Shown here: piece after piece, positions 4,826 to 37,515 of the stretch
Layout: each line of letters opens with the position of its first letter
How positions within the stretch are numbered: position 1 is the first letter of the stretch
Origin: Escherichia coli
GTDB lineage: Bacteria > Pseudomonadota > Gammaproteobacteria > Enterobacterales > Enterobacteriaceae
Length of the DNA stretch: 64,000 bases
Assembly: GCF_024223415.1 (NCBI RefSeq)
Contig: NZ_CP100500.1
Direction: 5' to 3' (one strand)
Notes under the pieces: model-generated
Told to the model about the DNA's origin: nothing
What the model saw: the letters and a program-made list of their open reading frames with translations, nothing else
The model's database searches: none
Made by a program: the position numbers and the translations under genes

Positions 4826-6415
4826 TTAATGCTCGCGGGTCTGGTGGAACTGAACGTCCGGATAACGTTCCTGCGCCAGGCGCAGATTGACCATGCTGGT
4901 AGCGATGTAAGCGAGGTTATCGCCGCCATCAAGCGCCAGTTGGCTTTCGTTCTTACGCTTGAACTCTTCGAATTTCTTCGCGTCCGCACATTCTACCCAC
5001 CGGGCGGTAGCAACGTTGACTGATTCATATACTGCTTCAACGTTGTATTCGCTCTTCAGGCGCGCTACCACCACATCAAACTGCAGCACACCAACCGCAC
5101 CAACGATCAGATCGTTGTTGGAGATTGGACGGAACACCTGCACCGCGCCCTCTTCGGAAAGCTGTACCAGCCCTTTGAGCAGCTGTTTTTGCTTCAGCGG
5201 ATCTTTCAGGCGGATACGACGGAACAGTTCTGGTGCGAAGTTCGGAATACCGGTGAACTTCATCATCTCACCCTGGGTAAAGGTGTCGCCGATCTGAATG
5301 GTGCCGTGGTTGTGCAGGCCGAGGATATCGCCCGGATACGCTTCTTCAACGTGCGAACGGTCACCCGCCATAAAGGTCAGCGCGTCGGAGATCACCACAT
5401 CTTTCGCAGTGCGCACCTGGCGCAGTTTCATGCCTTTTTCATATTTACCGGACACCACACGCATAAACGCCACGCGGTCGCGGTGTTTCGGGTCCATGTT
5501 GGCCTGAATTTTAAATACGAAGCCGGTAAATTTATCTTCGCTCGCTTCTACGGTACGGGTATCAGTCTGACGCGGCATCGGCGCAGGTGCCCACTCCACC
5601 AGGCCATCCAACATATGATCGACGCCGAAGTTACCCAGCGCAGTACCGAAGAATACCGGAGTGATTTCGCCCGCAAGGAACAGCTCTTTGTCGAACTCGT
5701 TAGACGCGCCTTTCACCAGTTCCAGTTCGTCACGCAGCTGCTGTGCCAGATCTTCACCAACCGCAGCATCGAGATCCGGGTTATTCAGCCCTTTAACAAT
5801 GCGGACTTCCTGAATAGTGTGCCCTTTACCGCTCTGATAGAGATAGGTTTCGTCTTTATAAAGGTGGTAAACGCCTTTAAACAGCTTGCCGCAGCCAATC
5901 GGCCAGGTGATCGGCGCACAGCCGATTTTCAGCTCGTTCTCAACTTCATCGAGCAGCTCCATCGGGTCGCGGATATCACGGTCAAGTTTGTTCATAAAGG
6001 TGAGGATCGGCGTGTCGCGCAGACGGGTAACTTCCATCAGCTTACGGGTACGATCTTCAACACCTTTTGCGGCGTCGATAACCATCAGGCAGCAGTCCAC
6101 CGCCGTCAGGGTACGATAGGTATCTTCCGAGAAGTCTTCGTGCCCCGGGGTGTCGAGCAGGTTAACCAGGCAATCGTGATACGGAAACTGCATCACAGAC
6201 GTAGTAATGGAGATCCCACGCTGCTTTTCCATCTCCATCCAGTCCGACTTAGCGTGCTGGTTGGAACCACGGCCTTTTACTGTACCGGCGGTCTGAATGG
6301 CCTGTCCGAACAGCAGCACCTTCTCGGTGATGGTAGTCTTACCGGCGTCCGGGTGAGAAATAATGGCAAAAGTGCGGCGCTTCGCCACCTCTTGCAAATA
6401 AGGAGACAACGTCAT
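4826..6415 (-). CDS. prfC: Peptide chain release factor 3 (GTPase)
   Basis: P-loop [12 protein letters not shown], translational GTPase architecture; start at [10 protein letters not shown] inside the 538-aa track ORF. Confidence 0.95.
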
Positions 6416-22547: not shown

Positions 22548-24212
22548 TTAAAACGTTTCCCAGTTCTCCCCGCTATCTGCCACGGCCATTTTACGCAGCG
22601 CAGCTGGCGTCACGGTTTTTACCACAGCCGATGTTTCACGCTGCTGTTGCTGCTGTTGCTGAATCCGGAACACTGCCACAGCTTCGGTCAGGCGACTGGC
22701 CTGCTCTTCCAGCGCGGCGGCGGCGGCGGCAGATTCTTCCACCAGCGCGGCGTTCTGTTGAGTTACCCGGTCCATCTCAGCAACCGCTAAGCCAACCTGA
22801 TCGATACCACGGCTCTGCTCATCAGAAGCAGAAGCTATTTCGCCCATAATGTCCGTCACGCGGGTCACGGCACTGACAATCTCCGCCATTGTTTCCCCGG
22901 CGCTTTCGACCAGCGTAGAGCCAACATCCACTTTCCCCACCGAGTCTTCAATCAGGCTTTTAATTTCACGAGCCGCCTGGGCGCTACGCTGGGCCAGATT
23001 ACGCACTTCTCCCGCAACCACCGCAAAACCACGTCCTTGCTCACCCGCACGCGCTGCTTCAACCGCCGCGTTCAAAGCCAGAATATTGGTCTGGAAGGCA
23101 ATGCCGTCAATTACACTGATAATATCGGCGATTTTCTGCGAACTGGTGGAGATATCACGCATAGTCTGCACCACGTTATCTACCACTTTGCCGCCGCGTT
23201 GCGCCGTTTCAGAAGCACTTAATGCCAGATGGCTGGCCTGGCGCGCATTCTCGGCGTTCTGTTTCACCGTTGCGGTCAGTTGCTCCATGCTGGCTGCCGT
23301 CTCTTCCAGCGAAGCGGCCTGTTGCTCGGTGCGCGAAGAGAGATCGTTATTACCGGTAGCGATTTCGCTGGCACCGCTATAGATGGCATTGGCCCCGTTG
23401 CGCACATCACCGACGGTACGCATCAGTTCTCCCTGCATATGGCGCAAACTCTCTGCCAGTTGCCCCATCTCATTAGAGCCATCCACCTCAATCGGTTTCA
23501 CCAGATCGCCGCCTGCAATATGACGAATGCTGTCAATCAGGCGATTCATTGGCGCTACCAGCGAGGCTTTAATACCGAACCAGACGGCGAAGATGACCGC
23601 CAGTACGACGATCATCACGCCCACCAGAATCCACATCGCCTGGCTGTAGGAGGCATTGTTATCGCTGACGGCGATATCATAGAGCCGATCGTTTTGCTCC
23701 ATGTAAGCCACATACTGCTTCTCGAAACCGTCCTGATATCCCTGGGTCGGCTGATCAAAGAACTCGTTGATTTTGCCTGCACCTAACAGTTGGATCAGCT
23801 CCGCCAGCGCATTGTGATAAATATCGTAATTACGTTTGATCTCTGCCGCTGCGGCGGTGCTCTGACGCGGGTCACGCGGCAACGCTTCGTAATCCGCCCA
23901 GTTTTTTTCCGCCTGTTTCAGCGAAATACTGGCACTCCGCATCAGCTCAGCAACGGTTGAACCGCTACCAATATTATTCTGATCCATCATGTAGCGGATA
24001 CCCGCGCGGTTGAGGGTGTTACGCGTCTGCAACAACGCGACCCAGCTGCCATTCAGCGTGGATTGCTGCTGACGAATGGTTTGTAAAACAGTGAAATTTT
24101 CTTTGTCATTCTTTAAGGCATTAAAGAACAGACCGCCTGATGTCAGTTGTAAAAGGCCAAAAACGGCCAAAACCAGCAGTAAGCTGGTCACGATCTTGAT
24201 ACGTTTTAACAT
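22548..24212 (-). CDS. tsr: Methyl-accepting chemotaxis protein I (serine receptor)
   Basis: 554-aa MCP with HAMP domain, methylation helices and C-terminal NWETF pentapeptide; poly-Gln linker of 7 Q. Confidence 0.95.
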
Positions 24213-24242
24213 GGTTTCTCTTTCCTGTGGACCGATGCAAGA

Positions 24243-24269
24243 TTTTCGGCCTGAAATGAGAAAACTTTA
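24243..24269 (-). promoter_or_regulatory. Sigma28 (FliA) class-3 promoter of tsr
   Basis: Minus strand reads TAAAGTTT, 11-bp spacer, GCCGAAAA (consensus TAAAGTTT-N11-GCCGATAA), about 30-55 bp upstream of the tsr ATG. Confidence 0.65.
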
Positions 24270-24439
24270 TAGGTAGCGACTTGAAACTGGTTAATTTTAC
24301 CTCACTTTTTTAATTTTTGTTCAAAAATACAATAACCACTTATTGATACATTTTCTTTTCTTATTTTTTTCACACGAATTGTATCTATTTTGAACGAAAT
24401 ATTTTATAGAGTGTGGAATTTTAAGAAAGGACATCTGAA

Positions 24440-24982
24440 ATGTTAAACCGTGACTTCGATCATCTCTCAACGCTATTACATCTCTTTTTTGAACGTGAGG
24501 ATATTTGCCAAAAGCTTAATATTATTGACCAAAACAATATCACCGGTTGGGAAGTGTGGTTCCAGGTAGAGTTTGCTAATATGCTCTGCTCAACAGACCA
24601 TGAATGGTGGCGTGAACAAGCACTTTCCTGTGATATGCGCAAAAAACCTGAGCGCCCGACACTACGCACAGATTTCTTACTACGTAAAAAAGGCTGGGCA
24701 CAAGATAGCTATATCGCGCTTGAAATAAAACAAAACAGAGACGCGACCAGTTGTGTTAAAAATATGATCGCAGACTTAGAAAAAAGCGCAAAAATAAAAC
24801 GTTCCGAACTCGATTTACGCAGTTTCTGGACCTTGGGTATCACCCCTATGATAGACAGGGAAAGGCTGGACTCTCTCATCGATTGCTATTTAGATGAGAA
24901 ATTTTATCTTACTAAATCTCGTAAAAAACACGTTTTACTTAAAGAAATAAATAACACACCATATTGCTATATTGTTATTTAA
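24440..24982 (+). CDS. Hypothetical protein, AT-rich orphan ORF (180 aa) with possible PD-(D/E)xK-like motif
   Basis: ATG preceded by aagaaagga; markedly AT-rich versus flanking core genes; residues ...RTDFLL...IALEIKQ... resemble a D...ExK nuclease core; no family recognised. Confidence 0.4.
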   Translation: MLNRDFDHLSTLLHLFFEREDICQKLNIIDQNNITGWEVWFQVEFANMLCSTDHEWWREQALSCDMRKKPERPTLRTDFLLRKKGWAQDSYIALEIKQNRDATSCVKNMIADLEKSAKIKRSELDLRSFWTLGITPMIDRERLDSLIDCYLDEKFYLTKSRKKHVLLKEINNTPYCYIVI

Positions 24983-25090
24983 TATTTATAGCATGAATAT
25001 AATTTTTAAATGAGTTACACAACCGAGGGCTAAAAATCGCTTCGGTTGTGATCATCATCACATAAATAACCTTCATAAACCTTGCTCAAA

Positions 25091-25139
25091 ACCGCTCAAC
25101 CGCAAAACTGACCGCTTACGTCCCTAAAATAACCACTCA
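25091..25139 (+). promoter_or_regulatory. BtsR (YehT) binding motifs upstream of btsT
   Basis: Three direct copies of ACC(G/A)CT(C/T)A: ACCGCTCA (25091), ACCGCTTA (25111), ACCACTCA (25132); the last two are separated by 13 bp. Confidence 0.55.
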
Positions 25140-25274
25140 GTTATTTACCTTACTTTACGCGCGCGTAACTCTGGCAGCATCACTGCAGGATAGCGGTCAA
25201 TTTACCTCCTCAAACGCAACGCAAACCTAGAACGGCTTCGGCCAACTATTAATCAATACATGCCAGGTTTTACT

Positions 25275-27425
25275 ATGGATACGAAAAAACTATTCAAGCA
25301 CATACCCTGGGTGATTCTCGGAATCATCGGTGCATTCTGCCTCGCGGTAGTTGCATTACGTCGGGGGGAGCACGTCAGCGCCCTGTGGATCGTGGTCGCC
25401 TCTGTGTCGGTGTATCTGGTGGCGTATCGCTACTACAGTTTGTATATCGCCCAGAAGGTGATGAAACTCGACCCCACGCGCGCGACGCCTGCGGTTATTA
25501 ACAACGACGGTCTGAACTACGTTCCGACCAACCGTTACGTGTTGTTTGGTCACCACTTCGCCGCTATCGCCGGTGCTGGTCCGCTGGTTGGTCCGGTTCT
25601 CGCCGCGCAGATGGGCTATCTGCCTGGCACGCTGTGGCTGCTGGCGGGGGTAGTGCTGGCCGGTGCGGTACAGGACTTTATGGTGCTGTTTATCTCCTCT
25701 CGCCGTAACGGCGCATCTCTCGGTGAGATGATCAAAGAAGAGATGGGACCAGTACCGGGGACTATCGCGCTGTTTGGCTGTTTCTTAATCATGATCATCA
25801 TCCTCGCCGTCCTGGCGCTGATTGTGGTTAAAGCCCTGGCCGAAAGTCCGTGGGGTGTCTTCACCGTTTGCTCAACCGTACCGATTGCGCTGTTTATGGG
25901 TATCTACATGCGCTTTATCCGTCCGGGGCGTGTGGGTGAAGTCTCTGTTATTGGTATCGTGCTGCTGGTTGCCTCTATCTACTTCGGTGGCGTGATTGCT
26001 CACGATCCGTACTGGGGTCCGGCACTGACCTTTAAAGACACCACCATTACCTTCGCGCTGATTGGCTATGCGTTTGTTTCCGCGCTGCTGCCGGTGTGGC
26101 TGATCCTCGCACCACGCGACTATCTGGCAACCTTCCTGAAGATCGGCGTTATCGTCGGCCTGGCGCTGGGTATCGTGGTGCTGAACCCGGAACTGAAAAT
26201 GCCTGCGATGACCCAGTACATTGACGGTACTGGCCCGCTGTGGAAAGGCGCTCTGTTCCCGTTCCTGTTCATCACCATCGCCTGTGGTGCGGTATCTGGC
26301 TTCCACGCGCTGATCTCTTCCGGTACGACGCCGAAACTGCTGGCTAACGAAACCGACGCGCGTTTCATTGGCTACGGCGCAATGCTGATGGAGTCCTTCG
26401 TGGCGATTATGGCGCTGGTTGCAGCGTCCATCATCGAACCGGATCTTTACTTCGCGATGAACACCCCGCCTGCTGGCCTTGGCATCACCATGCCTAACCT
26501 GCATGAAATGGGTGGCGAGAACGCGCCGATCATCATGGCGCAGCTGAAAGACGTTACCGCACACGCGGCAGCGACCGTCAGCTCCTGGGGCTTCGTGATT
26601 TCGCCAGAGCAGATCCTGCAAACCGCGAAAGACATTGGTGAGCCTTCTGTCCTGAACCGTGCAGGTGGTGCACCAACGCTGGCGGTAGGTATCGCTCACG
26701 TGTTCCACAAAGTGCTGCCGATGGCTGACATGGGCTTCTGGTATCACTTCGGTATTCTGTTCGAAGCCCTGTTCATCCTGACCGCGCTGGATGCGGGTAC
26801 CCGTTCTGGCCGCTTTATGCTGCAAGACCTGCTGGGTAACTTCATCCCGTTCCTGAAAAAAACCGACTCTCTGGTTGCTGGTATCATCGGTACTGCGGGC
26901 TGTGTGGGTCTGTGGGGCTACCTGCTGTATCAGGGCGTTGTCGATCCGCTGGGCGGCGTTAAGAGCCTGTGGCCGCTGTTCGGTATCTCCAACCAGATGC
27001 TGGCAGCCGTAGCGCTGGTACTGGGCACCGTTGTGCTGATTAAGATGAAGCGCACCCAATACATCTGGGTAACTGTTGTTCCGGCTGTATGGCTGCTTAT
27101 CTGCACCACCTGGGCGCTGGGCCTGAAACTGTTCAGCACCAACCCGCAGATGGAAGGCTTCTTCTACATGGCAAGCCAGTACAAAGAGAAGATTGCTAAC
27201 GGTACTGACCTGACGGCACAGCAGATTGCCAACATGAACCACATCGTTGTGAACAACTACACCAACGCGGGCCTGAGTATTCTGTTCCTGATTGTGGTGT
27301 ACAGCATCATCTTCTACGGTTTCAAAACCTGGCTTGCGGTGCGTAACAGCGACAAACGTACTGACAAAGAAACACCGTACGTTCCAATCCCGGAAGGCGG
27401 CGTGAAGATCTCTTCGCACCACTAA
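25275..27425 (+). CDS. btsT: Pyruvate/H+ symporter BtsT (CstA family)
   Basis: 716-aa polytopic membrane protein; start at ATG 25275 (MDTKKLFKHIPW) inside the 721-aa track ORF. Confidence 0.9.
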   Translation: MDTKKLFKHIPWVILGIIGAFCLAVVALRRGEHVSALWIVVASVSVYLVAYRYYSLYIAQKVMKLDPTRATPAVINNDGLNYVPTNRYVLFGHHFAAIAGAGPLVGPVLAAQMGYLPGTLWLLAGVVLAGAVQDFMVLFISSRRNGASLGEMIKEEMGPVPGTIALFGCFLIMIIILAVLALIVVKALAESPWGVFTVCSTVPIALFMGIYMRFIRPGRVGEVSVIGIVLLVASIYFGGVIAHDPYWGPALTFKDTTITFALIGYAFVSALLPVWLILAPRDYLATFLKIGVIVGLALGIVVLNPELKMPAMTQYIDGTGPLWKGALFPFLFITIACGAVSGFHALISSGTTPKLLANETDARFIGYGAMLMESFVAIMALVAASIIEPDLYFAMNTPPAGLGITMPNLHEMGGENAPIIMAQLKDVTAHAAATVSSWGFVISPEQILQTAKDIGEPSVLNRAGGAPTLAVGIAHVFHKVLPMADMGFWYHFGILFEALFILTALDAGTRSGRFMLQDLLGNFIPFLKKTDSLVAGIIGTAGCVGLWGYLLYQGVVDPLGGVKSLWPLFGISNQMLAAVALVLGTVVLIKMKRTQYIWVTVVPAVWLLICTTWALGLKLFSTNPQMEGFFYMASQYKEKIANGTDLTAQQIANMNHIVVNNYTNAGLSILFLIVVYSIIFYGFKTWLAVRNSDKRTDKETPYVPIPEGGVKISSHH

Positions 27426-28678: not shown

Positions 28679-28981
28679 TTATTTTTTGTTCTGATCGCGC
28701 AGCATCGCTTCACGTAAAATTGCGTTCAGGCGAGTTTGATAGCCTTTACCAGGTCGCTTCAGCCATTCCATCACATCAGCATCAATACGCACCGAAGCCT
28801 GGGTTTTCAATGGCCGATAAAACTTACCGCGTTCTGCGTTAGACCATTGCTCATCGCTGGAAGGCGGGATATCACTGTAATCAATATCTTCGTCGAATTT
28901 ATTCGCCAGTGCCTTCAGTTCGGCCTCATGCTGCACATCGAGTGTAGAGGGTGTCCCTCGTTTATGTTTAACCATGCTCAT
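28679..28981 (-). CDS. brnA: BrnA-like antitoxin (DUF4415/COG3514)
   Basis: C-terminal VRIDADVMEWLKRPGKGYQTRLNAILREAM is the hallmark BrnA motif; start at internal ATG (MSMVKHKRG) overlapping the brnT 3' end by 14 nt. Confidence 0.7.
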   Translation of the reverse strand: MSMVKHKRGTPSTLDVQHEAELKALANKFDEDIDYSDIPPSSDEQWSNAERGKFYRPLKTQASVRIDADVMEWLKRPGKGYQTRLNAILREAMLRDQNKK

Positions 28982-29255
28982 AGCGACTCCTCTCTTTACG
29001 ATCTGCTTTTCGTGCACTGATGATTCGAATAATTTCATTTCCGCTTTCGAAACGGATGGTATGCGCAACCAGAATAACCACGATACCGTGAACCAGGCCG
29101 ATAGTCTGCCAGCGATACTCACCGTTTTCTATGCGATCTTGCTGTGACAAATGTTGTGGATCATCAAACACTAACACCGCATCTTCAAAGCGGATGCCAT
29201 GTTTCACCCGATTACTTTTGGCCTTGTTTGCATCCCATTCAAACTCCATTGGCAT
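28968..29255 (-). CDS. brnT: BrnT-like toxin (DUF497/COG2929, RelE-fold ribonuclease)
   Basis: N-terminus ...MEFEWDANKAKSNRVKHGIRFEDAVLVFDD is the typical BrnT signature; toxin gene lies upstream of the antitoxin as in brnTA operons; start ambiguous among three nearby ATG (29249/29255/29264). Confidence 0.7.
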   Translation of the reverse strand: MPMEFEWDANKAKSNRVKHGIRFEDAVLVFDDPQHLSQQDRIENGEYRWQTIGLVHGIVVILVAHTIRFESGNEIIRIISARKADRKERSRYEHG

Positions 29256-29451
29256 AGTTGCCATCCCTAATTGTATATACAAAAATGTATCTACAATTAT
29301 TCTGCAATTATAGCGTTGATGTTGGAAATAGCATCACGTTTTGGATAATCAACCATGAAATTGACAATGAGTAAGTTGGACTTGATTCATCCAATAGAAT
29401 TTCTCGCCTGACATGGCACACTAAACACCTCGCTGTCGTTAAGGGATTACC

Positions 29452-30618
29452 GTGAAAAACTATAAAGTTATTACCCCGCTTTTTCCTACCTATGCACAGG
29501 TTAAAGCTATGATGAAAGCCGTCTCAGGCTATTCCCTGAAAGCGGTACGCAATATGATTACCGCCATTCGCGATCAAACCGGTACGCCGCAAAAACCCGT
29601 TGACTGGTCGGAACCTGACCTGTGGATCAGCGAACGCTTAACGGGCGAAGATGCCGACATCGCCCGTCGTATTTGGGATACAGATAATCACATATTGAAC
29701 CCGCGCCACAGCTACGGCTGCTACTTATTCCTCAACTATCCCCAGTTTGAGCTGATGGAAAGCACGCCAGATGATACCTGGCAGCCCACCTCGCGCGGGC
29801 AAAAATTCCTGCAAGATGACGAAAAAACGCTGCGTTCACTGGATGACCAGGAAGGCATTCTGCAACTGCTTGAGCTGCTGGCTGGCCGGGAAATGTCGCG
29901 CCGCGCCGATTTATTGCCGGAATGGCAGGCCTTTTTGCATCAGCATTCGAAATTCGCGTCTGCAAGTTCAGTGAAAAGCACGCTCTACTCCCGTCTCTAT
30001 AACCTTATTGACCGTGGCATGGTTACTCGCGAAGGTATGAGCTATTGCATCACCGATACCGGACGCGCCTGGCTTGGAAAAGCGTTGCCAGCACGAAAAA
30101 GCGATCCGCGTAAAGAGCTGTTGGAAGCGGTGAAACGCTACAACGAGCAGCAAAAAGAGCTGCTGCGCGAACAAATCAGCACGATGAACCCGTACAAATT
30201 TGAACAACTGGTCGGTCAATTACTGGAAGCAATGGGCTACGAGCAGGTCGAAGTGACCAAAGCCTCAGGCGATAAAGGTGTGGACGTGATTGGTCAGGTG
30301 CAGGTCGGCATCACCACTATTACCGAAGTGGTGCAGGTCAAAAGAATGCAGAACACCATCACTCGACCGTATATCGACCAGTTGCGCGGAGCGTTGCCTT
30401 ACCACAAAGCCATTCGCGGTACGCTCATCACCACCGGGAAATTTGCGGCGAAATGTGCAGAAGCGGCGCTCTTTCCGGGGGCAGCGCCCATTACGCTTAT
30501 CGACGGCGATCGCTTACTGGAACTGTTAATCGAAAATAACGTCGGCATTCGCCGCAGCAATGCAGTGGAATTGCTGGATGTAGATTTGCAGTTGTTTGAT
30601 GAGCTGGAGATGGATTAA
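29452..30618 (+). CDS. Mrr-family (type IV-like) restriction endonuclease with extended N-terminal region
   Basis: C-terminal Mrr_cat-like core (GDKGVDVIG...TEVVQVKR, D...QxK variant); GTG start preceded by aaggga; ends 63 bp before hsdM on the same strand. Confidence 0.75.
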   Translation: MKNYKVITPLFPTYAQVKAMMKAVSGYSLKAVRNMITAIRDQTGTPQKPVDWSEPDLWISERLTGEDADIARRIWDTDNHILNPRHSYGCYLFLNYPQFELMESTPDDTWQPTSRGQKFLQDDEKTLRSLDDQEGILQLLELLAGREMSRRADLLPEWQAFLHQHSKFASASSVKSTLYSRLYNLIDRGMVTREGMSYCITDTGRAWLGKALPARKSDPRKELLEAVKRYNEQQKELLREQISTMNPYKFEQLVGQLLEAMGYEQVEVTKASGDKGVDVIGQVQVGITTITEVVQVKRMQNTITRPYIDQLRGALPYHKAIRGTLITTGKFAAKCAEAALFPGAAPITLIDGDRLLELLIENNVGIRRSNAVELLDVDLQLFDELEMD

Positions 30619-30681
30619 AGGGCGAAATCTGCCGTCTCTACCATTACAATAGCGACCCAATTTATCTGAACAGAGTTCATC

Positions 30682-32301
30682 ATGGCCAAAGCACCAACTA
30701 AAAAAGCCAAAGCAAAGAAAGGCTTTGAAGAAACATTATGGGATACTGCAAACCAACTTCGCGGTAGCGTTGAGTCCTCCGAATACAAGCACGTGGTGTT
30801 AAGCCTCGTGTTCCTGAAATTCATCAGCGATAAGTTTGAAGCACGCCGCAAAAAAATGATTGCCGATGGGCAAGCTGACTTCCTTGAGATGGAAGTGTTC
30901 TACCAGCAGGACAACATTTTCTACCTGCCGGAAGAGGCGCGCTGGTCATTTATCAAACAAAATGCCAAACAGGACGATATTGCGGTTCGTATTGACACCG
31001 CCCTCTCGACCATTGAGAAACGTAACCCAACCCTGAAAGGCGCGCTGCCAGACAACTACTTCAGCCGTCAGAATCTGGAAACCAAAAAACTGGCGTCACT
31101 GATTGATACCATCGACAACGTCGAAACGCTGGCACACGAAACTGACGTTGAAACGTTGTCGAAAGAAGACCTGGTCGGACGCGTTTACGAATACTTCCTC
31201 GGTAAGTTTGCCGCAACCGAAGGCAAAGGCGGTGGTGAGTTCTACACGCCCAAATGTGTGGTTACGCTGTTAACTGAAATGCTCGAACCTTTCCAGGGCA
31301 AAATCTATGACCCATGCTGCGGCTCGGCGGGGATGTTCGTGCAGTCGGTGAAGTTTGTCGAGAGCCATCAGGGTAAAAGTCGTGATATCGCGCTGTATGG
31401 TCAGGAACTGACAGCCACGACGTATAAACTGGCAAAAATGAACCTCGCCATTCGCGGCCTTTCAGCAAACCTCGGCGAACGCCCGGCAGACACTTTCTTT
31501 AGCGACCAGCACCCGGACCTGAAAGCCGACTACATTCTGGCGAACCCGCCGTTCAACCTGAAAGACTGGCGTAATGAAGCCGAATTAACCAAAGATCCAC
31601 GTTTTGCTGGTTATCGTATGCCGCCAACCGGTAACGCCAACTACGGCTGGATTTTGCATATGCTCTCCAAGCTGTCGGCTAACGGCACAGCAGGTTTTGT
31701 GCTGGCAAACGGTTCGATGAGTTCTAACACCAGCGGTGAAGGCGAGATCCGTGCGCAGATGATCGAAAATGATCTGATCGACTGCATGATCGCCCTACCT
31801 GGTCAGTTGTTTTACACCACGCAGATCCCGGTGTGTTTATGGTTTATGACCAAATCGAAGGCTGCCGACCCGGCCAAAGGTTATCGTGATCGTCAGGGCG
31901 AGACGCTGTTTATTGATGCGCGTAACCTCGGCACCATGATTAGCCGCACAACTAAAGAGTTAACGGCGGAAGATATTGCCACCATCGCCGATACCTACCA
32001 TGCATGGCGCAGTACGCCGGAAGAACTGGCTGCACGGATTGCGCGTGGTGACAGCAAGCTGGAAAAATATGAAGACCAGGCAGGCTTCAGCAAAGTTGCG
32101 ACCCTGCAAGATATTAAAGATAACGACTACGTGCTGACGCCGGGCCGCTATGTGGGTGCAGCCGAGCAGGAAGAGGACGGCGTGGCATTTGAGACAAAAA
32201 TGCGGGAGTTGTCGAAGACGTTGTTTGAGCAGATGAAGCAGGCGGAAGAACTGGATTGTGCGATTCGCCAGAATCTGGAGGCGCTGGGTTATGGGGAGTA
32301 A
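30682..32301 (+). CDS. hsdM: Type I R-M N6-adenine DNA methyltransferase subunit
   Basis: 539-aa ORF with SAM-binding motif I (DPCCGSAGMF) and catalytic NPPF (ILANPPFNL); N-terminus unlike EcoKI HsdM. Confidence 0.9.
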   Translation: MAKAPTKKAKAKKGFEETLWDTANQLRGSVESSEYKHVVLSLVFLKFISDKFEARRKKMIADGQADFLEMEVFYQQDNIFYLPEEARWSFIKQNAKQDDIAVRIDTALSTIEKRNPTLKGALPDNYFSRQNLETKKLASLIDTIDNVETLAHETDVETLSKEDLVGRVYEYFLGKFAATEGKGGGEFYTPKCVVTLLTEMLEPFQGKIYDPCCGSAGMFVQSVKFVESHQGKSRDIALYGQELTATTYKLAKMNLAIRGLSANLGERPADTFFSDQHPDLKADYILANPPFNLKDWRNEAELTKDPRFAGYRMPPTGNANYGWILHMLSKLSANGTAGFVLANGSMSSNTSGEGEIRAQMIENDLIDCMIALPGQLFYTTQIPVCLWFMTKSKAADPAKGYRDRQGETLFIDARNLGTMISRTTKELTAEDIATIADTYHAWRSTPEELAARIARGDSKLEKYEDQAGFSKVATLQDIKDNDYVLTPGRYVGAAEQEEDGVAFETKMRELSKTLFEQMKQAEELDCAIRQNLEALGYGE

Positions 32302-33604
32302 TGCTATTACAACAATAATTGGTGAACACTTGCTGATTAGAAATGGCAAATCTTCGCCATCAAGAGCCATAACAGGAGAATATCCTGTTTATGGTTCAAA
32401 TGGAATAATAGGTTATTCAGATGAATATAACGCTAATGAAAATACAATAATTATCGGGCGTGTTGGGTCATATTGTGGTTCAGTTTATATTTCCGATAAA
32501 AAATGTTGGGTCACTGATAATGCAATAATTGGAACCGCAAAGAATGAAAATGAAAGTCATTTTTGGTTCTATCTTTTAAAAAAAATAGATTTGAACAATT
32601 ATAGTACTGGTTCAGGCCAACCTCTCATTAACCAAACAATAATTAATACAATATCCGTTACCATTCCTAAGCTCAGTGAGAAAAGAGTAGCCATTGGACA
32701 TTTTTTACGCCACTTTGATCAAAAGATAAATTTATCTCTTAATATCAATCAATCCTTGGAACAAATGTCCCAAACCTTGTTCAAATCCTGGTTTGTGGAT
32801 TTCGATCCGGTGATTGATAACGCGCTGGACGCGGGAAACCCAATCCCGGAAGCGATGCAATCTCGCGCAGAACTGCGTCAAAAAGTACGTAATAGTGCAG
32901 ATTTTAAACCGCTTCTAGCGGAAATCCGCTCGCTTTTCCCAAGTGAATTTGAAGAAACCGAACCAGGATGGTTACCTAAGGGCTGGAAACATGGTAATTT
33001 AAATGATGTCACGAAGATCTTAAGTGGGTTTGCTTTTAAGAGTAAAGACTTTGGTGATGAAGGTAAAAGTGTCATAAAAATAAAGAACATTAATATCGAT
33101 AAAACAATTGATATAGATCATACTCAAAAAATTTCTGATATCGTAGCCAAAGACGTAAAGCGTTTTCAATTATTTGATGCCGATATTTTGATGGCTATGA
33201 CTGGTGCCACGGTCGGTAAATTTGGAATATTAGCATCAAAAAATCATGAAGAATATTATCTTAACCAACGAGTTGCGAAGTTTGAAACAGATAAAAAAGC
33301 TTACCTTTATTGTATATTGAATCAAGAAAGTACCGAAAGATTTATAATCAATACAGCTCAGGGCAGTGCACAACCAAATATCAGTGCTAAAGATATTTTA
33401 AGTATTCCACTCACACTACCATCAAACGAAATAATAACTATATTCAATACATTTGTTGATCCTTTATTCTACAGAATGATAGCGAATACAAAAGTTAGTT
33501 TAAGTCTAACAGAACTCCGCGACACCTTGCTCCCAAAACTCATCTCCGGCGAGCTCTCCCTGGAAGATCTTCCGGATCTCAGCACCAATACAGAAGCCGC
33601 ATAA
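32291..33604 (+). CDS. hsdS: Type I R-M specificity subunit
   Basis: Two AT-rich variable target-recognition regions separated by a conserved central region (SLEQMSQTLFKSWFVDFDP) plus conserved C-terminal helix (LTELRDTLLPKLISGEL); ATG at 32291 overlaps the hsdM 3' end. Confidence 0.85.
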   Translation: MGSNAITTIIGEHLLIRNGKSSPSRAITGEYPVYGSNGIIGYSDEYNANENTIIIGRVGSYCGSVYISDKKCWVTDNAIIGTAKNENESHFWFYLLKKIDLNNYSTGSGQPLINQTIINTISVTIPKLSEKRVAIGHFLRHFDQKINLSLNINQSLEQMSQTLFKSWFVDFDPVIDNALDAGNPIPEAMQSRAELRQKVRNSADFKPLLAEIRSLFPSEFEETEPGWLPKGWKHGNLNDVTKILSGFAFKSKDFGDEGKSVIKIKNINIDKTIDIDHTQKISDIVAKDVKRFQLFDADILMAMTGATVGKFGILASKNHEEYYLNQRVAKFETDKKAYLYCILNQESTERFIINTAQGSAQPNISAKDILSIPLTLPSNEIITIFNTFVDPLFYRMIANTKVSLSLTELRDTLLPKLISGELSLEDLPDLSTNTEAA

Positions 33605-33612
33605 CGCATTTT

Positions 33613-33637
33613 GCCCCTGTAAAATCAGGGGCTTTCT
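33613..33637 (+). terminator. Hairpin with T-run between hsdS and hsdR (possible attenuator)
   Basis: gcccctg-taaaat-caggggc followed by tttct, 9 bp after the hsdS stop and about 60 bp before the hsdR ATG. Confidence 0.45.
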
Positions 33638-33698
33638 GGTAAGGTTTTCTACTGATACGGGAATGCTTACCAGAAATTAGCCAGGGTTGGAGCGCGAT

Positions 33699-36600
33699 AT
33701 GAGTCTCTCTTTCAGTGAAGCAAAATTAGAACAAGCGATCATTGAACTGCTGCAGGATCAGGGATATCAACACCTGATCGGCGATAATGTCCCACGTTCA
33801 AGTCTCGATCAGGTCATCATCGAAGACGATCTCCGTCATTATTTAGCGGCACGCTACCAGCCTGATGGCATTACTGAAGAAGAGATTCAACGGCTGATCA
33901 AACAGTTCACCACGCTTCCGGCCTCCGACCTTTATGAAAGCAACAAAACATTTTGTCGCTGGCTGGCAAATGGTTTTCTGTTCAAACGCGACGATCGGCA
34001 ACAAAAAGATCTCTATATTGAATTGCTCGACACCCGGCATCTACCCGCCGCACTGCGCCAGATATTTGACACCGACGATGTCCCGTTGCAACAGGCGGCG
34101 GAACTCCCGCCTTCCTATATTAATCCGCCGCTTAACCGGATTAAGATTGTTAACCAGCTTAAAATCTCCGGTAAAGATAATCAGACTCGTATTCCTGACG
34201 GCATTCTCTATATCAACGGTCTGCCACTGGTCGTCTTTGAATTTAAAAGTGCGGTGCGCGAGCAAGAAGCCAGTATTGGCGATGCCTGGAAGCAGCTCTG
34301 TAAACGCTATCGCCGGGATATTCCGCAACTGTTTATCTACAACGCGCTCTGCGTTATCAGCGATGGCGTAAATAACCGGATGGGCAACCTGTTTGCGCCC
34401 TATGAATACTTTTACTCATGGCGCAAAGTCACCGGTAATGAAAACCGTGAACAGGACGGAATTCCATCATTGCACTCAATGATTCAGGGGCTGTTTCATC
34501 CGGTACGTCTGCTGGACGTGATTAAAAACTTTATCTGCTTCCCGGATAAAGCCAAGCACGAAGTAAAAATTTGCTGCCGATATCCGCAGTACTATGCCGC
34601 CCGCAAACTCTATTACAGCATCAAGCAAGCGCGTAAACCTTTCGGTAGCGGTAAAGGCGGCACCTACTTTGGCGCAACGGGCTGTGGCAAAAGTTACACC
34701 ATGCAATTTTTAACGCGTCTTTTGATGAAGAGCGTGGAGTTTGCCAGCCCGACCATTGTTTTGATCACCGACCGCACCGATCTGGACGATCAGCTTTCTG
34801 CGCAAATGTGCAACGCCAAAAATTACATTGGCGACGACACCATCGTTCCTGTTACCAGCCGTGAAGATTTGCGTAATCAACTGGCGGGACGCAATAGTGG
34901 CGGTGTATTCCTGACAACGATCCATAAATTCACCGAAGACACCGAACTCCTTTCTGAACGCAGCAATATCATTTGCATCTCGGACGAAGCACATCGCAGC
35001 CAGGTTAACCTCGACCAGAAAGTCATCGTCGATAAAGAAAGCGGAAAAGTGCGCAAAACTTATGGCTTTGCGAAATACCTGCACGATTCACTGCCAAACG
35101 CCACCTATGTTGGCTTTACCGGCACACCGATTGACGCGACGCTCGATGTCTTCGGTGAGGTGATCGACAGTTACACCATGACCGAATCCGTTCAGGATGA
35201 AATCACTGTACGCATCGTGTACGAAGGCCGTGCGGCTAAAGTGATCCTGGACTCCAGTAAACTGGAAGAAGTTGAAAAGTATTACGAAGAGTGCGCAAAC
35301 GCAGGCACCAATGAGTGGCAAATCGACGAAAGCAAAAAAGCCACCGCAACCATGAATGCGGTACTGGGTGATGAAGATCGGTTAAAAGCCCTCGCGGAAG
35401 ATTTTGCCAAACATTATGAAAAACGCGTAGACGAAGGTTCCACCGTAAAAGGCAAAGCCATGTTTGTTTGTGCCAGCCGTGAAATTGCCTGGGATTTCTA
35501 CCGTCAGCTTAAAGCTATTCGCCCTGCCTGGTTTGAAGTGAAGCAAGCACCCGATGGCGTCGTCCTGACGGAACAGGAGCAGAAAGAGTTACCGCCTTCA
35601 GAAATGGTGAAGATGGTCATGACGCGCGGTAAAGATGACGACGAGGCGCTTTATGATTTACTGGGCACAAAAGAATATCGTAAAGAGCTGGATAAACAGT
35701 TTAAAAACGCTAAATCGAATTTCAAAATTGCCATTGTTGTTGATATGTGGCTGACCGGTTTCGACGTCCCGGAACTGGATACCATCTATATTGATAAACC
35801 CTTACAAAAACATAATCTTATCCAGACCATTTCTCGCGTTAACCGTAAACTGGAAGGCAAAAGTAAAGGGTTAGTGGTGGACTACATCGGCATTAAAAGT
35901 CAGATGAACCAGGCACTGGCAATGTATTCCCGCATTGATGCCACCAACTTTGAAGATATTCAGCAATCGGTAATAGAAGTTAAAAACCATCTCGATTTGT
36001 TGGGGCAAGTCTTTTACGAATTTGACAGTCGGGATTATTTTAGTGGTGAGCCACAAGCGCAATTATCCTGCCTCAACCGCGCGGCGGAATTTGTTCTGCG
36101 TACCCAGAAAGTTGAACGTCGTTTTATGGGACTGGTTAAACGCATGAAAGCCGCCTACGACGTCTGCTGCGGCAGCGAAGCATTATCACAGACAGAACGT
36201 GACTATATTCACTATTATCTTGCTGTTCGTTCAATTGTTTTCAAACTGACGAAAGGTGACGCACCGGATGTCACCCAGATGAATGCACGCGTTCGTGAAA
36301 TGATTGCAGAAGCGTTAAAAGCTGATGGCGTAGAAGAGATTTATTTTCTTGGCGATAAAAAAGCGGAATCCATCGATATTTTTGACGAAGATTATCTGGC
36401 ACGAATTAACAAGATCAAACTTCCGGCAACGAAGATCCAGTTATTACAAAAATTACTGGAAAAAGCGATCAGCGACTTCAAGAAAGTGAACCAGTTGCAA
36501 GGGATTAACTTCACCCGCCGCTTCCAGGCAATTATAGATCGTTATAATGAGCGGCGAGAAGATGATGTACTCAACGGTGAAGAATTCGATACATTCAGTC

Positions 36601-36962
36601 AGGAAATGACCGATATTATCTATGATATTAAAACCGAAATGGGCACCTGGGCCGATTTAGGCATTGATATTGAAGAAAAAGCGTTTTTCGACATTCTTGC
36701 TCATATGCGCGATAAATATCAGTTCACCTATGACGATGAAAAAATGCTGTCACTGGCAAAAGAGATGAAAAGCGTGGTTGACAACACATCGAAATATCCT
36801 GACTGGAGTAAACGTGATGATATTAAAGCGAAACTGAAAGTTGAACTTATTCTGCTTCTACACAAGCATAAGTTCCCGCCAGTAGCGAATGATGATGTTT
36901 ATATGGGTGTGCTGGCACAGGCAGAGAATTTTAAAGAACACCATATGAGTGCTTTAAATTAA
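33699..36962 (+). CDS. hsdR: Type I R-M restriction subunit (nuclease/helicase)
   Basis: N-terminal PD-(D/E)xK (…LPLVVFEFKS), Walker A (GATGCGKS), DEAH box (ISDEAHRSQ); ATG 33699 preceded by ggag. Confidence 0.9.
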   Translation: MSLSFSEAKLEQAIIELLQDQGYQHLIGDNVPRSSLDQVIIEDDLRHYLAARYQPDGITEEEIQRLIKQFTTLPASDLYESNKTFCRWLANGFLFKRDDRQQKDLYIELLDTRHLPAALRQIFDTDDVPLQQAAELPPSYINPPLNRIKIVNQLKISGKDNQTRIPDGILYINGLPLVVFEFKSAVREQEASIGDAWKQLCKRYRRDIPQLFIYNALCVISDGVNNRMGNLFAPYEYFYSWRKVTGNENREQDGIPSLHSMIQGLFHPVRLLDVIKNFICFPDKAKHEVKICCRYPQYYAARKLYYSIKQARKPFGSGKGGTYFGATGCGKSYTMQFLTRLLMKSVEFASPTIVLITDRTDLDDQLSAQMCNAKNYIGDDTIVPVTSREDLRNQLAGRNSGGVFLTTIHKFTEDTELLSERSNIICISDEAHRSQVNLDQKVIVDKESGKVRKTYGFAKYLHDSLPNATYVGFTGTPIDATLDVFGEVIDSYTMTESVQDEITVRIVYEGRAAKVILDSSKLEEVEKYYEECANAGTNEWQIDESKKATATMNAVLGDEDRLKALAEDFAKHYEKRVDEGSTVKGKAMFVCASREIAWDFYRQLKAIRPAWFEVKQAPDGVVLTEQEQKELPPSEMVKMVMTRGKDDDEALYDLLGTKEYRKELDKQFKNAKSNFKIAIVVDMWLTGFDVPELDTIYIDKPLQKHNLIQTISRVNRKLEGKSKGLVVDYIGIKSQMNQALAMYSRIDATNFEDIQQSVIEVKNHLDLLGQVFYEFDSRDYFSGEPQAQLSCLNRAAEFVLRTQKVERRFMGLVKRMKAAYDVCCGSEALSQTERDYIHYYLAVRSIVFKLTKGDAPDVTQMNARVREMIAEALKADGVEEIYFLGDKKAESIDIFDEDYLARINKIKLPATKIQLLQKLLEKAISDFKKVNQLQGINFTRRFQAIIDRYNERREDDVLNGEEFDTFSQEMTDIIYDIKTEMGTWADLGIDIEEKAFFDILAHMRDKYQFTYDDEKMLSLAKEMKSVVDNTSKYPDWSKRDDIKAKLKVELILLLHKHKFPPVANDDVYMGVLAQAENFKEHHMSALN

Positions 36963-36969
36963 TTATGAA

Positions 36970-37000
36970 GGCCGGATACACTTTGTTATCCGGCCATTCT
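36970..37000 (+). terminator. Hairpin after hsdR
   Basis: ggccggata-cactttgt-tatccggcc followed by attct; weak T-tract. Confidence 0.45.
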
Positions 37001-37082
37001 GAATTAACGTTAATTTCTCTTCCAGATCTTTCCAGTAACGCTTTTATTATTTTCTATTTTTAGCTGGACTATCCCTGTATTT

Positions 37083-37098
37083 ACTGATGATATATCCA
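37083..37098. promoter_or_regulatory. LexA (SOS) box upstream of symE
   Basis: CTGATGATATATCCAG fits CTG-N10-CAG with an AT-rich centre, about 80 bp upstream of the symE ATG. Confidence 0.6.
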
Positions 37099-37104
37099 GG
37101 TATT

Positions 37105-37183
37105 TAGCGCGGTGCGGATGTGCGCCAACACACCCGCACCGCTCATCACAATCACTATTTTCAAGGAATAGCAGTTATGACTG
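37105..37183 (-). ncRNA. symR: SymR antisense sRNA (approximate coordinates)
   Basis: Placed by analogy with the K-12 symE/SymR type I TA arrangement, where a ~77-nt antisense RNA overlaps the symE RBS and start codon; boundaries not determined from sequence. Confidence 0.35.
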
Positions 37184-37515
37184 ACACGCATTCTATTGCA
37201 CAACCGTTCGAAGCAGAAGTCTCCCCGGCAAATAACCGCCAATTAACCGTGAGTTATGCGAGTCGCTACCCGGATTACAGCCGTATTCCCGCCATCACTC
37301 TGAAAGGTCAGTGGCTGGAAGCCGCCGGTTTTGCTACCGGCACGGCGGTAGATGTCAAAGTGATGGACGGCTGTATTGTCCTCACCGCCCAACCACCCGC
37401 CGCCGAAGAGAGCGAACTGATGCAGTCGCTACGCCAGGTGTGCAAACTGTCGGCACGTAAACAAAAGCAGGTGCAGGAGTTTATTGGGGTGATTAGTAGC
37501 AAAACGCCACGCTAA
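37177..37515 (+). CDS. symE: SOS-induced toxin SymE (AbrB-fold)
   Basis: [55 protein letters not shown]...; start at internal ATG 37177 with RBS aagga. Confidence 0.85.

Follow-up and report, generated by a model that had tools for sequence, protein, structure and literature searches.

In Escherichia coli K-12, tsr and btsT are separated by 377 bp; in the strain analysed here they lie 1062 bp apart, a difference of 685 bp. What does the longer gap encode, and how did the difference arise? These questions were addressed in a window of 64,000 nucleotides of E. coli DNA (the whole stretch analysed, from contig NZ_CP100500.1 of the RefSeq assembly GCF_024223415.1), in which the gap contains an open reading frame (ORF) at 24440-24982. 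The first-pass annotation, made from the letters, had described an AT-rich orphan ORF of 180 codons in an interval of about 1.05 kb, with an acceptable ribosome-binding site and a nuclease-like D...ExK motif, and had suggested that the K-12 gap was several hundred bp shorter, as is indeed the case. Our analysis indicates that the ORF is a gene, that its product is a small stand-alone protein with the predicted fold of PD-(D/E)xK nucleases, and that it possibly acts against foreign DNA.

A conserved protein-coding gene between tsr and btsT

24440..24982, + strand: coding sequence, stop included, of a 180-aa stand-alone protein of predicted PD-(D/E)xK fold (from the ORF list, the PGAP CDS and the homologues)
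24427..24431, + strand: Shine-Dalgarno-like AAGGA, 8 nt before the ATG of the ORF (read from the sequence)

The ORF starts with ATG, comprises 180 codons and encodes the protein WP_000934391.1, which is ECs_5314 in E. coli O157:H7 Sakai. The coordinates of the first pass proved right, and the ribosome-binding site it had accepted is the AAGGA motif at 24427-24431. A purine-rich AAGGA or AGGA also lies ahead of the start in the orthologues of Citrobacter, Phytobacter and locus L015. The GC content of the ORF is 0.385, well under that of tsr (0.54) and btsT (0.56), again in agreement with the earlier description; the corresponding values are 0.35 for the allele-specific segment described below and 0.495 for the whole window. 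At third codon positions the GC content is 0.38 in the ORF, 0.60 in tsr and 0.69 in btsT.

A word-indexed search retrieved 39 homologues from Citrobacter, Serratia, Enterobacter and Pseudomonas with identities of 38-80%, nearly all of them exactly 180 aa long with the same first residue. The start residue is common to all 21 aligned homologues, and the start at 24440 is therefore supported. Comparison with the Citrobacter orthologues gave dN values of 0.115-0.121 with saturated synonymous sites, indicating that dN/dS is far below 1. This substitution pattern demonstrates strong purifying selection on the predicted protein across genera. A profile search of 1.84 billion representatives yielded 321 clusters at E<=1e-3 and 196 at E<=1e-10, counted at 50% identity, almost all of which have a single domain and a length of 175-195 aa. 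Members of the family occur in Gamma-, Beta- and Epsilonproteobacteria, and each of the 46 carrier records listed has a PGAP annotation of the gene. The term orphan therefore had to be dropped, as 321 clusters in three proteobacterial classes and an existing PGAP annotation do not fit it.

It is almost certain that the ORF is a real protein-coding gene. The rival explanation, a chance ORF in AT-rich intergenic DNA that is no gene at all, could point to the lack of a named family. However, the chance of 180 open codons is about 4e-6, with stops making up about 6.6% of codons at the composition of the ORF, the length of the homologues is kept down to 22% identity, dN is far below dS, and the predicted fold is confident. 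This explanation is thus refuted by the homologues, the profile search, the selection and the predicted fold, and its remaining probability is negligible.

A predicted PD-(D/E)xK fold with an intact active site

The AF2 model of the protein, computed with 21 homologues, has a pLDDT of 87.7 and a pTM of 0.85. Two N-terminal helices are followed by a helix at residues 38-50, three strands at 54-64, 74-83 and 91-98, a helix at 102-116 and a strand at 126-136. This alpha-beta-beta-beta-alpha-beta order in the model indicates a restriction-endonuclease-like fold, in which the superfamily core of four mixed beta-strands with two flanking helices is present. The Foldseek matches against the PDB were singly weak (best E 0.018), and almost all of them were PD-(D/E)xK nucleases. 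The structural matches, given with their scores, were CinB (8.2), CidB (7.3), OkrAI (6.9), SwaI (6.9), BglII (6.8), BstYI (6.5), the R2 retrotransposon endonuclease (6.5), NucC (6.3), BglI (6.3), the Cas4-like SSO0001 (6.3) and BamHI (5.9). In AFDB50, matches with TM of 0.8-0.93 were family members from Pectobacterium, Vibrio, Pseudomonas, Acinetobacter, Haemophilus, Neisseria and Sulfurimonas, nearly all of which are labelled "Uncharacterized protein".

Conservation was counted in a MAFFT alignment of 116 diverse members, down to 22% identity. The number of members sharing each residue is as follows.

E38: 114 of 116
W40: 115 of 116
Q42: 110 of 116
E44: 116 of 116
E59: 112 of 116
D78: 115 of 116
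E95: 114 of 116
K97: 115 of 116
D112: 115 of 116

The catalytic residues of the superfamily, an acidic residue on helix 1, an Asp on strand 2 and (D/E)-x-K on strand 3, all have counterparts in the protein: E38/E44 lie on the first core helix of the AF2 model, D78 on the second strand and E95-x-K97 on the third strand, with a conservation of 98-100%. The stretches WEVWFQVEF, RTDFLL and IALEIKQ, from which the D...ExK motif had been proposed, turned out to hold the near-invariant positions of the family. Judging from the model, the protein very probably has a PD-(D/E)xK fold with a functional active site, and we have high confidence that this predicted enzyme is intact, being neither a decayed nor a purely structural copy. 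A fold prediction had been called for in the first-pass annotation, which regarded a fold lacking a nuclease-like core, or an identical K-12 sequence annotated as non-coding with no translation evidence, as evidence against its proposal; such a core is predicted by the model, and K-12 lacks the gene.

No family model could be assigned to the protein, in line with the earlier remark that it belonged to no recognised family: the NCBIfam scan of the window protein gave no match, the Pfam scan gave Tn7_TnsA-like_N alone at E 0.11, below significance, and the PHROGs scan gave nothing significant. Pfam detected no nuclease family at E<=0.001 in the 116 members. Sequence searches of the PDB with profiles of 21 and 116 sequences returned no match even at E<=10. 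The family is best described as a new, unnamed branch within the well-known PD-(D/E)xK superfamily. If its function is confirmed, this widespread branch, which has no Pfam or NCBIfam model, would gain a description, and a gene of O157:H7 annotated merely as "hypothetical" would gain a role.

Comparison with known enzymes

The small homodimeric type IIP enzymes BamHI, BglII, OkrAI and BstYI resemble the predicted protein in fold, whereas the identity in the structural alignments is just 7-13% and the sequence searches of the PDB did not retrieve them. The family also differs from them in its own N-terminal extension of two helices (residues 2-31) with the conserved residues D5, F16 and F17, and in that no cognate methyltransferase adjoins its gene in the 52 loci compared. 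The assignment as the endonuclease of a type II restriction-modification (R-M) system was rejected on this ground, since no methyltransferase neighbours the gene either between tsr and btsT in the window or in the 52 loci; a protective methylase encoded elsewhere in the genome would be possible.

TnsA-like_N (PF08722), the PD-(D/E)xK half of the Tn7 transposase, is the sole recurrent Pfam family, and some relatives are named after it in UniRef. The weak match covers residues 56-108 and includes the D...ExK strands. However, in addition to the E of 0.11 for the window protein, it was found in 8 of the 116 members at E<=0.1 and in none at E<=0.001, no TnsB/TnsC-type neighbours are present in the 52 loci, and the window segment has no transposon ends. 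A TnsA-like endonuclease was therefore rejected. The top structural matches, CinB and CidB of Wolbachia, are nuclease domains of multi-domain proteins of 650-730 aa with 8-9% identity; the likeness is at the level of the fold alone and their biology is unrelated.

In architecture, the family is similar to the solitary Mrr/type IV-like enzymes and to the nuclease cassettes of Vibrio integrons, in which one small nuclease gene also forms its own unit. Similar to such single-gene nuclease modules, its members are found in integron cassettes, in accessory slots of prophages and, at some loci, beside defence genes. Unlike single-gene defence modules, the family has no detectable PADLOC homology and no reader or sensor domain.

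Genomic contexts of the family

A locus scan with one genome per species gave 51 loci, and the ORFs were clustered in 52 loci including earlier ones. No conserved partner gene was found in the 52 loci beyond synteny within a genus, and the median gaps to the neighbours are 186 bp upstream and 171 bp downstream. As no neighbour family is shared, the gene appears to be an autonomous one-gene unit. In the window, the ORF is likewise predicted to be its own transcription unit, between the divergent promoters of tsr and btsT. Broken or truncated copies occur in Xenorhabdus beddingii, Marinobacter, Affinibrenneria, Vreelandella, Moritella, an Acinetobacter and Neisseria.

In the window, 3.7 kb separate the gene from the hsd/mrr immigration control region, and btsT-yjiX-yjiA alone lie between them.

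~28680-37500: immigration control region, with BrnT/BrnA toxin-antitoxin, Mrr-like restriction endonuclease, type I R-M (order M-S-R) and SymE (mapped from L078 24467-33303)

A recombination-promoting nuclease of the Rpn family is found beyond this region in the window. Elsewhere, genes linked to defence or mobility lie beside family members at several loci. The member in Serratia fonticola belongs to an integrase island and neighbours a type I HsdR, and the one on a viral-metagenome contig is near AbiEi-like and WYL genes. SIR2-HerA follows immediately downstream in a locus of Betaproteobacteria, an OLD/AriA/GajA-like ATPase lies downstream in Pseudomonas citronellolis, and a UvrD/GajB-like helicase is a neighbour in a Vibrio locus. 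IS630 and IS66 transposases are near the member in Thorsellia, and a fragment of a retron-like reverse transcriptase is near that in Marinospirillum.

Eight prophage-like contigs of IMG/VR carry the gene, and in at least four of them (L070, L073/L074, L076) it is on the opposite strand, beside terminase and portal genes, a position and orientation typical of a moron. The copies in Pseudomonas prophages adjoin the terminase. In the prophage of Pseudomonas japonica (L070 6846-9014, L030), the copy is placed between the gene of a phrog_513 'transposase' protein and that of an HslV-family peptidase, both on the opposite strand.

In Vibrio genomosp. F10 ZF-129 (L047), a relative with 38% identity at 608-1150 is the single ORF between two direct repeats at 460-582 and 1153-1274. 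The repeats are about 123 nt long and 80-87% identical, are spaced by 692 bp and have TAACAA...GCGTTA ends. By comparison with the ends of VCR repeats, we take them to be attC sites within a chromosomal integron. This family member is preceded by another cassette-like ORF. No flanking attC site or other flanking repeat was found at the window copy, which therefore does not have the hallmark of an integron cassette.

Housekeeping contexts are found as well. The gene follows prpB-prpC-acnD in Acinetobacter and lies elsewhere by queG, citramalate synthase, acyl-CoA synthetase, RtcB or regulators. In Neisseria weixii (L066 7203-8945), a truncated member is located between ispD and ispF; this copy splits two usually adjacent genes, which shows that the gene can insert within a pair of core genes.

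Distribution in E. coli and origin of the segment

24274..25046, no strand assigned: allele-specific segment of 773 bp with AT-rich leader, ORF and 3' region, 35% GC (from the K-12 comparison and the genome survey)

The first-pass annotation had also asked for a survey of presence and absence in E. coli. The segment is present in 362 of the 5426 complete E. coli genomes (6.7%) and absent from K-12. It is always chromosomal and in single copy, and is at least 99% identical in 355 carriers. O157:H7 makes up most of the carriers listed, and records of E. marmotae and E. ruysiae include the identical protein. The window and K-12 alleles agree on the left as far as about 24273, and on the right they agree again beginning with the CRP-like palindrome (25047-25062), the elements ACCGCTCA and ACCGCTTA being common to both; in place of the segment, K-12 has an unrelated filler of 91 bp. 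The possibility that this filler is a remnant of the segment left as a deletion scar was rejected, as 185 of 300 shuffles scored at least as high. With no recognisable remnant in K-12, the polarity had to be argued from other species. No transposon ends, target duplications, direct or inverted repeats or attC sites were found flanking the segment, and no transposon end, target duplication or deletion scar settles the direction of gain or loss there.

Other contents were found at the slot. BL21 has the hpa (4-hydroxyphenylacetate) operon there beside btsT (L016), and strain 22AR0750 has an N-acyl-D-amino-acid deacylase (D-aminoacylase) together with an amino-acid deaminase (L017). As the slot holds the nuclease gene, the hpa operon, the D-aminoacylase/deaminase pair or the short filler in different strains, it behaves as a site of allelic replacement, and from these alleles the gap between tsr and btsT is a putative multi-allelic replacement hotspot in E. 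coli.

The same slot between tsr and btsT also holds the gene in Citrobacter portucalensis, C. braakii and two further Citrobacter, as well as in Phytobacter, E. marmotae/ruysiae and one other Enterobacterales genome. A chemoreceptor gene adjoins the family member in "Enterobacter" pulveris. Between the window and E. marmotae/ruysiae, the nucleotide identity is 91.9% for the ORF, 92.4% for the upstream spacer and 93.5% for the downstream spacer, compared with 88.4% for tsr and 97.3% for btsT. In the Escherichia comparison, the gene has by these identities apparently diverged in step with its flanks. Against Citrobacter, tsr and btsT have dS values of 1.3 and 0.5, and the synonymous sites of the ORF are saturated, which rules out a recent transfer between these genera.

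Since the slot is shared across taxa and the divergence of the gene matches that of the flanks, loss or replacement is favoured. It is more parsimonious that the gene was probably at this site in the Escherichia ancestor and was replaced in most E. coli lineages including K-12. The earlier view of an inserted gene is right in that K-12 lacks it, and probably wrong in its polarity, the slot being filled in related taxa. The low GC content suggests that the gene may be of foreign origin further back. Alternatively, it may have been exchanged repeatedly by homologous recombination through the conserved flanks. In E. marmotae/ruysiae, an insertion of 122 bp that the window does not have lies right before the start codon of btsT (L083 ~5836-5957); its sequence looks like an ERIC/IRU intergenic repeat.

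Proposed function and alternative explanations

We propose that the gene product is a small stand-alone PD-(D/E)xK enzyme with an intact metal-binding active site, which would need no partner protein. It would cut DNA in a manner dependent on a divalent metal, held by E44, D78 and E95 together with K97. Probably the enzyme would act as a homodimer, like the type IIP enzymes of 190-220 aa, which match it best in structure over the full length. It would be a solitary nuclease, restriction-like or type IV-like, that attacks incoming foreign DNA such as that of phages and other mobile elements. The host DNA might be spared through dependence on modification, through a host methylase (Dam, Dcm), through structure specificity or through tight repression.

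The integron cassette, the prophage morons, the defence neighbours, the patchy distribution and the frequent decay together form the pattern of a gene in conflict with mobile DNA. Precedents exist for such a nuclease. Phage defence has been demonstrated for single-gene nuclease cassettes in Vibrio integrons (bioRxiv 10.1101/2024.07.02.601686), and PD-(D/E)xK was the commonest domain class among the new defence systems of E. coli in a 2026 screen (PMC13092281). A solitary nuclease acting against foreign DNA is favoured because of the contexts in mobile DNA and these precedents of the Vibrio cassettes and the 2026 screen. By analogy, a role in defence against foreign DNA is therefore possible, and we hold it tentatively. 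A more specific version is that the family is a minimal single-protein anti-phage system, consisting of a bare PD-(D/E)xK core with a short helical N-terminus and having no methyltransferase, sensor or partner, in which self DNA would be spared by an orphan methylase of the host or by modification dependence; O157:H7 and some other E. coli would have kept it at the margin of the immigration control region, with relatives moving about as integron cassettes and prophage morons. We regard this version as doubtful. If it is true, a lone enzyme of 180 aa would be among the smallest nuclease-based immunity modules and would pose the question of how such a nuclease spares the host chromosome.

Several observations weigh against a defensive role. 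PADLOC-DB 2.0.0 gave no match to a defence model with the window protein and ten diverse relatives; weak matches to methyltransferase models (E 9e-4 and 1.3e-3) cover non-catalytic stretches and are probably spurious, and nine of the relatives had none. The first sample of neighbours examined by PADLOC was hand-picked, and among 30 neighbours chosen less selectively, most had a housekeeping or regulatory role or gave no match, indicating that the association with defence genes is modest. A tblastn search found no relative in 50,697 GenBank phage records or 72,556 PLSDB plasmid records. In the portions of the supplementary tables that were covered, the gene is absent from the set tested in the 2026 DefensePredictor screen of E. 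coli (PMC13092281). The nuclease stands alone, lacking a methyltransferase, a sensor domain and an immunity gene, and has no obvious means of discriminating self from non-self. In addition, the consensus scan found no sigma-70 promoter on the + strand of the interval, no expression evidence for the ORF was found, and the AT-rich leader suggests that the ORF may be silenced.

The same protein might instead be a structure-specific nuclease of recombination or repair, similar to Holliday-junction resolvases or nicking enzymes, that serves host or prophage DNA metabolism and plays no part in defence. Its small single-domain architecture with an intact active site is of the Hjc/RecU type in size, the prophage copies adjoin packaging genes, where branch-resolving nucleases would be useful, and many chromosomal copies lie among housekeeping genes. 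However, a distribution as patchy as 6.7% of the complete E. coli genomes, broken or truncated copies in several lineages, a relative that is an integron cassette, and the orientation of the prophage gene opposite to the packaging operon are hard to reconcile with this role, which we consider improbable. We give equally little credence to a selfish or addictive single-gene element, either a free-standing homing-type endonuclease or a toxin checked by a small RNA or by repression, which would persist by its own transmission and bring the host no benefit. Such an element would account for a single AT-rich gene that lies between core genes at differing sites (between tsr and btsT, between ispD and ispF, after acnD, beside gnd) and rides in an integron cassette and in prophages. 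It would not be expected to occur in one copy per E. coli genome and always at the same site, nor to show in E. marmotae/ruysiae a divergence that matches the flanks and suggests vertical descent; in addition, neither terminal repeats nor target duplications nor an intron or intein setting were found, and there are no relatives in the plasmid and phage records searched and no antitoxin ORF or Rfam RNA in the segment.

A further explanation concerns expression and is compatible with any of these biochemical readings, namely that the gene is silent in E. coli, a relic of an old acquisition that is kept repressed (e.g. by H-NS on the AT-rich leader), makes no normal contribution and is heading for loss. 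The absence of the gene from 93% of the complete E. coli genomes and of a consensus promoter on the + strand, the GC content of 35% of the segment, the lack of conservation of the upstream region between genera and the pseudogenised copies in other lineages agree with it. However, the ORF is intact, with the segment at least 99% identical in 355 carriers, strong purifying selection is seen across genera, and the catalytic residues are near-invariant throughout the family, so that this explanation is also unlikely. Uncharacterised PD-(D/E)xK proteins are common in variable regions, and the finding is thus a lead and no surprise; the putative nuclease gene of O157:H7 is a clean candidate for a minimal module made up of a single nuclease gene.

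Flanking elements and minor features of the locus

The elements that bound the gene, and the neighbouring genes, are listed below.

22548-24212, - strand: tsr, start codon ending at 24212
24243..24269, - strand: left boundary, outside the gene; sigma-28-type promoter-like element of tsr, TAAAGTTT-N11-GCCGAAAA (pattern match)
25018..25050, + strand: hairpin with 11-bp stem and no U tract, 36 nt past the stop codon of the ORF
25047..25062, + strand: right boundary, outside the gene; CRP-like palindrome TGTGA-N6-TCACA upstream of btsT
25091-25098: ACCGCTCA, downstream of the CRP-like palindrome, on the btsT side
25111-25118: ACCGCTTA, downstream of the CRP-like palindrome, on the btsT side
Start at 25275 (PGAP annotation), + strand: btsT, with a longer in-frame ATG at 25260

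The sigma-28-type element is kept in both alleles, in K-12 and across genera, and by the FliA consensus it is presumably the class-3 flagellar promoter of tsr. K-12, Citrobacter, Phytobacter and L015 all retain the CRP-like palindrome. In view of the regulation of yjiY/btsT, we tentatively assign the palindrome to CRP and the elements ACCGCTCA and ACCGCTTA to BtsR.

Downstream of the ORF, the stretch 24975-25070 (96 nt) folds at -22.3 kcal/mol with a z of -4.3, and none of 200 shuffles was as stable. The hairpin at 25018..25050 may serve as a transcript end or a stabiliser; the consensus scan called no intrinsic terminator, this hairpin included. In the hairpin (CACAACCGAGG...CTTCGGTTGTG), the 3' arm and the TGTGA half-site of the CRP-like palindrome of btsT overlap (25018-25062). 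The hairpin occurs in the gene-bearing Escherichia alleles of the window and of E. marmotae/ruysiae and is absent from the spacers of K-12, Citrobacter and Phytobacter. No Rfam RNA was found in the interval between tsr and btsT.

The Tsr protein of the window (22548-24212, - strand) has 554 aa with a run of seven glutamines near codons 518-524, compared with four glutamines and 551 aa in K-12. The run looks like a length polymorphism of a CAG repeat in the C-terminal linker of the chemoreceptor. Four further substitutions separate the two proteins, which are otherwise 99% identical.

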